Of a DNA stretch of 25,564 nucleotides, positions 2,780 through 3,089 are shown one piece after another. The notes under the pieces were generated by a model. That model worked only from the letters and a program-made list of their open reading frames with translations. It was not told where the DNA came from and did no database searches. Positions within the stretch are counted from its first letter, which is position 1. The number at the start of each line of letters is the position of its first letter. The DNA is from a virus (lineage: Duplodnaviria; Heunggongvirae; Uroviricota; Caudoviricetes), in IMG/VR virus record IMGVR_UViG_2778261069_000008; one strand, written 5' to 3'. A program made the translations under genes and the position numbers.

Positions 2780-2854
2780 TGGAGCGGGCAGCGGGAATCG
2801 AACCCGCATCATCAGCTTGGAAGGCTGAGGTAATAGCCATTATACGATGCCCGC
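2780..2854 (-). tRNA. tRNA-Gly (anticodon UCC), glyT-like
   Basis: Reverse complement GCGGGCATCGTATAATGGCTATTACCTCAGCCTTCCAAGCTGATGATGCGGGTTCGATTCCCGCTGCCCGCTCCA folds as a canonical cloverleaf with loop CUUCCAA; matches host glyT as I remember it. Confidence 0.75.
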
Positions 2855-2857
2855 ATA

Positions 2858-2933
2858 TGGTGCCGACTACCGGAATTGAACTGGTGACCTACTGATTACA
2901 AGTCAGTTGCTCTACCTACTGAGCTAAGTCGGC
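2858..2933 (-). tRNA. tRNA-Thr (anticodon UGU), thrU-like
   Basis: Reverse complement GCCGACTTAGCTCAGTAGGTAGAGCAACTGACTTGTAATCAGTAGGTCACCAGTTCAATTCCGGTAGTCGGCACCA; perfect 7-bp acceptor stem, loop CUUGUAA, encoded CCA. Confidence 0.75.
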
Positions 2934-2935
2934 AC

Positions 2936-3012
2936 TGGACCGCCACCGGGGACTCGAACCTCGCACACTCAACTTAAAGGGTTGACGCTCTTTCCTGATG
3001 AGCTAGTGGCGG
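2936..3012 (-). tRNA. Atypical tRNA-like gene (anticodon loop CCUUUAA, apparent anticodon UUU with C at position 33)
   Basis: Reverse complement CCGCCACTAGCTCATCAGGAAAGAGCGTCAACCCTTTAAGTTGAGTGTGCGAGGTTCGAGTCCCCGGTGGCGGTCCA; 7-bp acceptor, D-arm with GG, T-loop TTCGAGT, CCA end, but C33 instead of the universal U33 and an A-C mispair in the T-stem. Confidence 0.5.
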
Positions 3013-3013
3013 T

Positions 3014-3089
3014 TGGTGGCCCTTGCTGGATTTGAACCAGCGACCTGGCGATTATGAGTCGCTCGCTCTCACCACTGAGCTAAAGGGCC
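3014..3089 (-). tRNA. tRNA-Ile2-like (anticodon CAU; ileX/ileZ-type, could be annotated Met)
   Basis: Reverse complement GGCCCTTTAGCTCAGTGGTGAGAGCGAGCGACTCATAATCGCCAGGTCGCTGGTTCAAATCCAGCAAGGGCCACCA; loop CUCAUAA; strongly resembles E. coli tRNA-Ile2 as recalled. Confidence 0.8.

Follow-up and report, generated by a model that had tools for sequence, protein, structure and literature searches.

A lysine-anticodon tRNA with C33, apparently derived from phage argN, in a lambdoid prophage of Escherichia coli

The DNA analyzed here, called the window, is a whole stretch of 25,564 nucleotides (nt) recorded in IMG/VR as IMGVR_UViG_2778261069_000008. It matches exactly a segment of an Escherichia coli chromosome (NZ_CP039404.1) and contains a lambdoid prophage integrated beside tRNA-Ser(CGA). 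The prophage has four tRNA genes at positions 2780-3089, all on the minus strand. One of them, referred to below as X, has the anticodon UUU and a C at position 33. It was found that X aligns base for base with the argN gene (anticodon UCG) of a Shiga toxin (Stx) 2a phage; both argN and X come immediately after ileZ, and the two ileZ genes are identical. As judged from its sequence, X belongs, as a genuine tRNA gene, to the argN lineage; its anticodon has switched from Arg to Lys, and a U33C change has become fixed in it. X is neither a diverged lysT nor a random tRNA-like fold. As to its role, I tentatively regard X as a passenger of weak activity and nearly neutral effect, which would be maintained through linkage to its neighbors and as a processing unit, and I do not see in it a specialized decoder. 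The probability of this reading is put somewhat below even, at roughly 0.45.

The RNA sequence of X is CCGCCACUAGCUCAUCAGGAAAGAGCGUCAACCCUUUAAGUUGAGUGUGCGAGGUUCGAGUCCCCGGUGGCGGUCCA. It has a full cloverleaf with stems of 7, 4, 5, and 5 bp, in which 20 of the 21 pairs are standard and A51xC63 is the single mismatch. X keeps U8, A14, G18-G19, A21, G53-U54-U55-C56, A58, C61, and a purine at position 37, and the T-loop is UUCGAGU. In score and in tertiary-interaction bases, X is a canonical tRNA; what it lacks is the U33 of the U-turn. The anticodon loop, C32-C33-U34-U35-U36-A37-A38, corresponds to positions 2980..2974 of the window. C33 is base 2979 (G on the plus strand) and stands opposite the consensus U33 in the Infernal alignment. 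The oddities of X are thus C33, C1-G72, U73, and A51xC63, and A20 is also present. The cloverleaf lies 2.7 kcal/mol above the minimum free energy, and the minimum-free-energy fold differs from the cloverleaf for several members of the family, canonical ones included.

The initial annotation of this DNA had described a good cloverleaf with CCA at 2936-3012 and a loop CCUUUAA with C at position 33, and both ARAGORN and Infernal reproduce this description. It had also named an alternative register with U33 as one of the outcomes that would overturn it. Such a register is not possible, since the 5-bp stem UCAAC/GUUGA fixes C33. An 8-nt loop restoring U33 was likewise ruled out by both programs and by the stem sequence. 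A sequencing or transcription error was ruled out by the presence of the same sequence in hundreds of independent assemblies. Thus, the idea that C33 is an artefact of error or folding is practically out of the question.

The family of X was recovered by a pattern scan of IMG/VR, and the conservation of the body within it is partly imposed by the search patterns. The scan gave about 61 copies with the loop CUUCGAA (Arg-UCG), 16 copies with CUUCUAA (Arg-UCU), 38 copies with CCUUUAA (X), and a few copies of rare forms with other loops. The nearest canonical relative of X is the Arg(UCU) form, which has the same anticodon stem UCAAC/GUUGA and a loop differing only by U33C and C35U. Twelve Arg(UCU) copies reside in Ile2-Arg(UCU)-Thr-Gly clusters, which correspond to the cluster of the window except that a canonical tRNA stands where X would be. 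X is 80-84% identical to argN and about 88-90% identical to the Arg(UCU) form. X shares with both of them the slot after ileZ, the acceptor stem CCGCCAY/RTGGYGG, C1-G72, the D-arm with A20, and the T-arm. It differs from both in having the anticodon UUU instead of UCG or UCU and C33 instead of U33. Compared with argN, the anticodon stem has a compensatory change from G30-C40 to A-U. In 22 distinct sequences of the family, the cloverleaf is 97.8% paired, and 6 of the 21 pairs show changes on both sides; none of 500 column-shuffled alignments reached the observed paired fraction or covariation score. X therefore has the homology and the position (directly 3′ of ileZ and downstream of the antiterminator gene Q) of the argN/argO lineage, while it lacks the arginine anticodon of that lineage (UCG or UCU, with C35). 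C35 is the main identity base for arginyl-tRNA synthetase (ArgRS), and X has no C35 because UUU replaces UCG or UCU.

The Rfam tRNA model (RF00005, gathering score 29 bits) gives X 44.4 bits, canonical argN 43.0 bits, the Arg(UCU) form 52.1 bits, and a U33 sister allele of X 53.2 bits. The low score of X is a family trait, because canonical argN itself scores 43.0 bits. For the same reason, the low score was rejected as a sign of decay.

X resembles E. coli lysT in the anticodon UUU, in six of the seven loop positions (CUUUUAA in lysT, CCUUUAA in X), and in 36-UAA-38, which is a determinant for N6-threonylcarbamoyladenosine (t6A) (PMC13276492). The bodies are unrelated, and X differs from lysT in having U73 instead of A73, C16 instead of U16, G39-U40-U41 instead of U39-C40-A41, and C33. 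Thus, as a tRNA-Lys, X has the U34-U35-U36 anticodon and not the A73 discriminator. A likeness may also be noted to the C33 initiator tRNAs of plants and fungi, which have C33 in an otherwise orthodox cloverleaf. Those are eukaryotic initiators for the P site, whereas X is a bacterial or phage tRNA with an elongator anticodon. A literature search for ileZ/argN/argO or for prophage tRNA-Lys retrieved nothing relevant from the library that was searched.

The four genes of the cluster are called by both ARAGORN and Rfam, and CCA is encoded in all of them (Table 1). The spacers are 1 nt between Ile2 and X, 2 nt between X and Thr, and 3 nt between Thr and Gly. The Ile2 gene is identical to ileZ of the Stx2a_F349 phage. 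The Thr gene is a copy of the host thrU gene (75/76 identity to K-12, with G57A in the window copy), and the Gly gene is identical to the host glyT gene (75/75). They are joined by the sequence TAT, an arrangement that is the host thrU-tyrU-glyT operon after loss of tyrU and its spacers, and two IMG/VR contigs still have a 5′ remnant of tyrU after Thr. Judging from these sequences, Thr and Gly are host genes captured by the phage. Rfam matches to Plastid-ycf2 on the plus strand were dismissed; they are antisense images of the tRNAs and fall below the gathering threshold.

Table 1. Positions of the tRNA genes and of the late-operon start in the window
Feature	Position	Strand	Remarks
tRNA-Gly (UCC)	2780..2854	-	Rfam 64.9 bits
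tRNA-Thr (UGU)	2858..2933	-	Rfam 73.8 bits
X, odd tRNA, anticodon UUU, 77 nt	2936..3012	-	Rfam 44.4 bits, window-wide E-value 1.4e-6; second in transcription order
tRNA-Ile2 (CAU, ileZ type)	3014..3089	-	Rfam 72.5 bits; first in cluster; named tRNA-Ile by PGAP
Sigma-70-like promoter match TTGCAA-17-TATTAT	3099..3127	-	consensus match only; end 9 nt before first tRNA
G+C-rich hairpin at tR′ position, between Q and tRNAs	3213..3236	-	scored by scan on plus strand
Promoter-like site at pR′ position, overlapping end of Q	3288..3316	-	consensus match only
Antiterminator Q	3300..3995	-	PF06323, E = 1.3e-91; defines late-operon start

Most of what the initial annotation had said of the cluster agrees with these results. 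ARAGORN returns exactly the extent that it gave for the four tRNAs, and Rfam concurs. Its three canonical members and one member with C33 and anticodon UUU are those seen by both programs. Its glyT-like and thrU-like labels are borne out by the K-12 identities, and its Ile2-CAU label by the Stx2a-phage ileZ and by the tRNA-Ile name given by the Prokaryotic Genome Annotation Pipeline (PGAP). The placement in the late operon is also correct, as the cluster lies between Q/tR′ and the lysis genes. X had been called the third tRNA from the 5′ side, with no strand stated; this is right in plus-strand coordinates and wrong in transcription order, where X is the second. The set does differ, as it had said, from the Ile/Arg/Arg set (ileZ-argN-argO) of Stx phages, being Ile2/X/Thr/Gly. 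What it did not contain is the homology to argN and the capture of host genes. In the light of these sequences, the cluster represents one variant form of the Stx-phage set and is not unrelated to it. For X, the initial annotation had left three options (degenerate copy, unusual decoder, tRNA-like element), none of which is proven. The descent of X from argN, its score, and its lesions narrow these options, and a random tRNA-like fold is excluded.

Is X common? The identical 77-mer was found in 279 of 20,395 complete-genome records of E. coli, and a copy with 95-99% identity in 472 more. It was also found in more than 60 IMG/VR contigs. X lies behind at least two types of Q and also behind a DNA methyltransferase gene, and it is followed by either Thr-Gly or argO. 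When the non-U33 pattern was searched in 185,579 species-representative genomes, matches came only from E. coli, Shigella flexneri, and Hafnia paralvei. PGAP/RefSeq names the intact allele tRNA-Lys. Two common derived alleles are called neither by PGAP nor by Rfam at E <= 0.01; they are the form of the O157 PPompW prophage, with a 1-nt deletion in the D-stem, and the form of strain 042, with U8C, C11U, and C4U.

The mechanism behind the favored reading may be outlined as follows. In this sublineage, the Arg(UCU) loop CUUCUAA became CCUUUAA by two transitions, C35U, which makes the anticodon UUU, and U33C, which removes the U-turn base. X is probably transcribed within a four-tRNA polycistron, because 1 nt separates it from the preceding ileZ and 2 nt from the following Thr, and because it is downstream of Q/tR′ and a promoter-like site. 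Tightly packed tRNA operons of E. coli depend on RNase P, and with spacers of 1-3 nt, RNase P would have to excise X to free its neighbors. Lysyl-tRNA synthetase (LysRS) and the t6A machinery would read X as a lysine tRNA through U34-U35-U36 and 36-UAA-38. In terms of the identity elements of LysRS and ArgRS, charging is likely to be poor, as argued by U73 and the Arg-type body. C33 should lower the performance of X on the ribosome; in older in vitro work, replacement of U33 reportedly impaired decoding or ribosome binding. Successful prophages may then have spread X as a hitch-hiker of ileZ, Thr, and Gly, and the acceptor/T-arm half of X may have been retained since it serves as a processing unit.

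The loss of U33 was compared with a background of phage tRNAs. In a control sample of 120 IMG/VR phage loci picked by the presence of tRNA-Phe, ARAGORN called 926 tRNAs. All 38 tRNA-Lys(UUU) have U33. Among the 888 other tRNAs, 25 (2.8%) have no U33, with C in 19, A in 4, and G in 2. The figure of 2.8% is far above what I would expect for cellular tRNAs. In an unbiased phage sample, then, 2.8% of the tRNAs are non-U33, most often with C in place of U, and C33 can be explained without special assumptions. An IMG/VR scan for tRNAs that combine a standard D-arm with a UUU loop lacking U33 gave 52 unrelated contigs, 41 of which have CCUUUAA on diverse stems. No U33 tRNA-Lys was found near these 52. 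They fit the general background, because 2.8% of the control tRNAs also have no U33. Convergent evolution of C33 in phage tRNA-Lys was thus considered and removed by the control.

The secondary lesions of X also favor weak constraint. In a second scan, which was anchored on the anticodon arm and left the remainder of the gene free to vary, 118 copies of X were obtained: 64 are intact, 24 have U8C, and 16 have the 1-nt deletion in the D-stem, so that 40 copies, about one third, have one of these two lesions. The frequent lesions fall in the D-arm and at position 8. Most other changes, including those in the acceptor and T-arm, are of the wobble or pair-restoring kind. In the E. coli records, 472 of about 751 differ from the intact allele. 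X has about as many variant sites as Thr and Gly, both of which may be repaired from the host copies.

Several observations weigh against the favored reading. When canonical argN(UCG) was put through the same test as a control, gross lesions were seen in about one quarter of the sampled contigs, for example a D-stem mismatch, or A58G combined with a mismatch in the acceptor. Since argN has comparable lesions, and Thr and Gly comparable numbers of variant sites, weak constraint is general to these prophage tRNAs and not specific to X, and the argument from lesions is a non-specific one. In a search that placed no constraint on the loop, 38 of 39 copies of X and 61 of 64 copies of argN turned out to have it conserved; the time depth is too shallow for this comparison to be decisive. 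Among the forms of X, the intact C33 allele is the most frequent, and it is found in at least four different prophage backbones and in phages isolated as particles. The C33 allele is present in about 750 E. coli records and its U33 sister in about 20. Moreover, a base other than U at position 33 can be stable in this family. A subfamily from Hafnia and Yersinia phages has A33 in all 20 IMG/VR members, including those of Hafnia paralvei (L127) and Yersinia phage YeP1 (L003). Its loop is mostly CAUAUAA (anticodon UAU), kept across variants of the body and often in the sole tRNA at the locus; CAUUGCC, CAUUGCU, CAUUGAU, and CAUUAUU also occur, and in some of these loops position 37 is a pyrimidine. 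In two contigs, the Arg(UCU) form itself has A33. Non-U33 is thus recurrent in the argN-type lineage and stable in one branch, as far as these sequences tell.

The U33 sister allele has the loop CUUUUAU in a perfect cloverleaf, with a compensatory change from C4-G70 to U4-A70. The U33 sister allele with an 8-nt loop, CUUUUUAU, is present in some mouse isolates; at loci L472 and L473 (positions 1501-1578; E. coli M18 and PG20180057), it is annotated as tRNA-Lys. An 8-nt loop such as CUUUUUAU is the architecture of +1 frameshift suppressor tRNAs. A separate case comes from the Thr gene. Six E. coli genomes, including NZ_CP025842.1, and five IMG/VR loci have a thrU-derived copy in which G35U makes the canonical lysine loop CUUUUAA, and PGAP names it tRNA-Lys. 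To judge from this copy, a UUU anticodon arose in the cluster a second time, independently of X; the copy adjoins a damaged (U8C) allele of X.

The UUU anticodon brings tRNA-targeting defense systems to mind. E. coli has a single tRNA-Lys(UUU) species, which PrrC, AriB, and related nucleases target. PrrC cuts it between U33 and position 34 (PMC2610378). AriB of the PARIS system cuts tRNA-Lys between positions 40 and 41 and needs U16, U39, A41, and U36AAUCA41 (PMC12409363). Phage tRNA-Lys variants rescue infection from PARIS and PrrC170 (PMC11464382, PMC12409363, PMC11555353), and mutation of the anticodon loop has been hypothesized for nuclease-evading phage tRNAs (van den Berg et al. 2023). 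X might accordingly be a spare tRNA-Lys for counter-defense, decoding AAA and AAG from a foreign Arg-type body when the host tRNA-Lys is destroyed. The body would offer none of the nuclease recognition points, the base beside the PrrC cut site would be changed, and late phage proteins would still be made. The published rescues are in line with this alternative. At the determinants U16, U39, C40, and A41 for AriB, X has C16, G39, U40, and U41, and its sequence from position 36 is UAAGUU, so that by sequence X should escape from AriB; C33 adjoins the PrrC cut site. Codon supplementation does not explain a phage tRNA-Lys, because AAA and AAG are not rare codons. Two diverged alleles, which are set apart by a compensatory pair in the acceptor stem and by the bases at loop positions 33 and 38, have both retained UUU. 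This anticodon arose again in the same cluster from thrU, and of the two alleles, that with C33 is by far the commoner. X also adjoins Thr(UGU), the second main target of PARIS. X is thus like the nuclease-evading tRNAs of T5 (tRNA-Lys against PARIS) and SP15 (tRNA-Lys against PrrC170) in having the anticodon of a targeted host tRNA and substitutions at or near the positions of cleavage and recognition. T5 and SP15 are virulent phages with large tRNA arrays, and their cases have experimental proof; X belongs to a temperate lambdoid prophage, is derived from an Arg tRNA, and is often damaged. Convergence above the background, which would be expected of such tRNAs, is not seen: the 38 control tRNA-Lys(UUU) all have U33, and the 52 non-U33 cases match the 2.8% level. 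The Thr copy keeps the host UAAUCA site and should therefore be sensitive to PARIS. Two high-frequency alleles of X, including that of the O157 PPompW prophage, are structurally damaged, U73 and the Arg body may prevent lysylation, and the thrU-derived UUU allele is present in only six genomes. No tRNA-targeting defense gene was found in the prophage part of the window by Pfam, PADLOC, or PHROGs. I regard a spare tRNA-Lys as possible but rather doubtful. The full form of the proposal, a working spare tRNA-Lys whose foreign body and C33 would give immunity to PrrC, PARIS, and their relatives and allow late translation to be completed in hosts where these systems are triggered, is unlikely.

At the other extreme, X may be a dead relic, a pseudogene that is neither matured nor charged, has no role as RNA, and awaits deletion. 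The loss of U33, the A51xC63 mismatch, and the free-energy gap of the cloverleaf point that way, as do the frequent further lesions (U8C, the D-stem deletion, and single D-stem mismatches) and the fact that some pipelines leave X unannotated, for example in ON470580. However, the intact allele keeps every other tertiary-interaction base and an encoded CCA, and it scores the same as canonical argN, in which A51xC63 is present as well. The changes in the acceptor and T-arm are wobble or pair-restoring, and the lesion load of argN is similar. A dead relic is thus quite improbable. It is also conceivable that X is a non-decoding tRNA-like RNA, which would modulate frameshifting at A-AAG sites or act as a decoy that soaks up a tRNA-modifying toxin or an anticodon nuclease. 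The body of the family is well conserved while the anticodon loop is its most variable part (C33, A33, pyrimidine 37, and the 8-nt loop), which favors such a role. Yet the conservation of the body is in part a product of the search patterns, no linked partner protein is present in the window, and no precedent was found in the literature searched. This last alternative is very improbable. A near-neutral passenger remains the favored reading of X, at the strength given above.

On the minus strand, the order is Q, a promoter-like site, a G+C-rich hairpin with a T-run, a second promoter-like site, and the four tRNAs. Read on this strand, the hairpin has a core stem CCCGC/GCGGG followed by a run of seven T residues. 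The second promoter-like site could be an own promoter of the tRNA cluster, as a candidate from its consensus match. A weak, sub-threshold match to isrK/isrJ-like RNA in Rfam covers the hairpin downstream of Q (3207-3291). Downstream of the tRNAs, a YagU/DUF1440 gene on the opposite strand is followed by holin, lysozyme, and spanin genes. The YagU/DUF1440 membrane-protein gene (2047-2616, plus strand), between the tRNA cluster and the holin gene, is in the moron position that is held by stx in Stx phages. In related prophages, tandem copies of the small RNA (sRNA) STnc100 were seen just downstream of the tRNA clusters (L008, 2265-3380; L129, 2143-2315; L002, 3217-3299).

In the early region of the prophage, the sok antitoxin RNA with hokD (115 bits; 6005-6179, minus strand) and the sRNA DicF (76 bits; 13430-13481, plus strand) were found. 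The prophage integrase gene (16739-17764) abuts tRNA-Ser(CGA) (17817-17906). About 1 kb beyond this tRNA gene lie tRNA-Asn(GUU) (18898-18973) and then a second integrase gene (19033-20397). Since integrases are located at both tRNA-Ser(CGA) and tRNA-Asn(GUU), the window has two mobile elements at adjacent tRNA genes. In the second element, at 22681-22809 and 25095-25282, both on the minus strand, Rfam matches were obtained to EFASI RNA (94.8 bits), C4 antisense RNA (76.1 bits), and isrK (63.3 bits).

If X is a passenger and nothing more, the finding explains an oddity that has been annotated inconsistently as tRNA-Lys, as a hypothetical protein, or not at all. The Ile/Arg/Arg set of the Stx phages and the Ile/"Lys"/Thr/Gly set would then be seen as one evolving module, which recruits host tRNA genes (thrU and glyT) and switches anticodons by point mutation. 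If X is functional, phage tRNAs against host defense would extend from large virulent phages to common prophages of E. coli, pathogenic lineages included, and X would offer a natural test case for the tolerance of an elongator tRNA to the loss of U33. If the spare tRNA-Lys proposal is true, X would be the first counter-defense tRNA of this sort in a temperate coliphage and the first case of an adaptive loss of U33.

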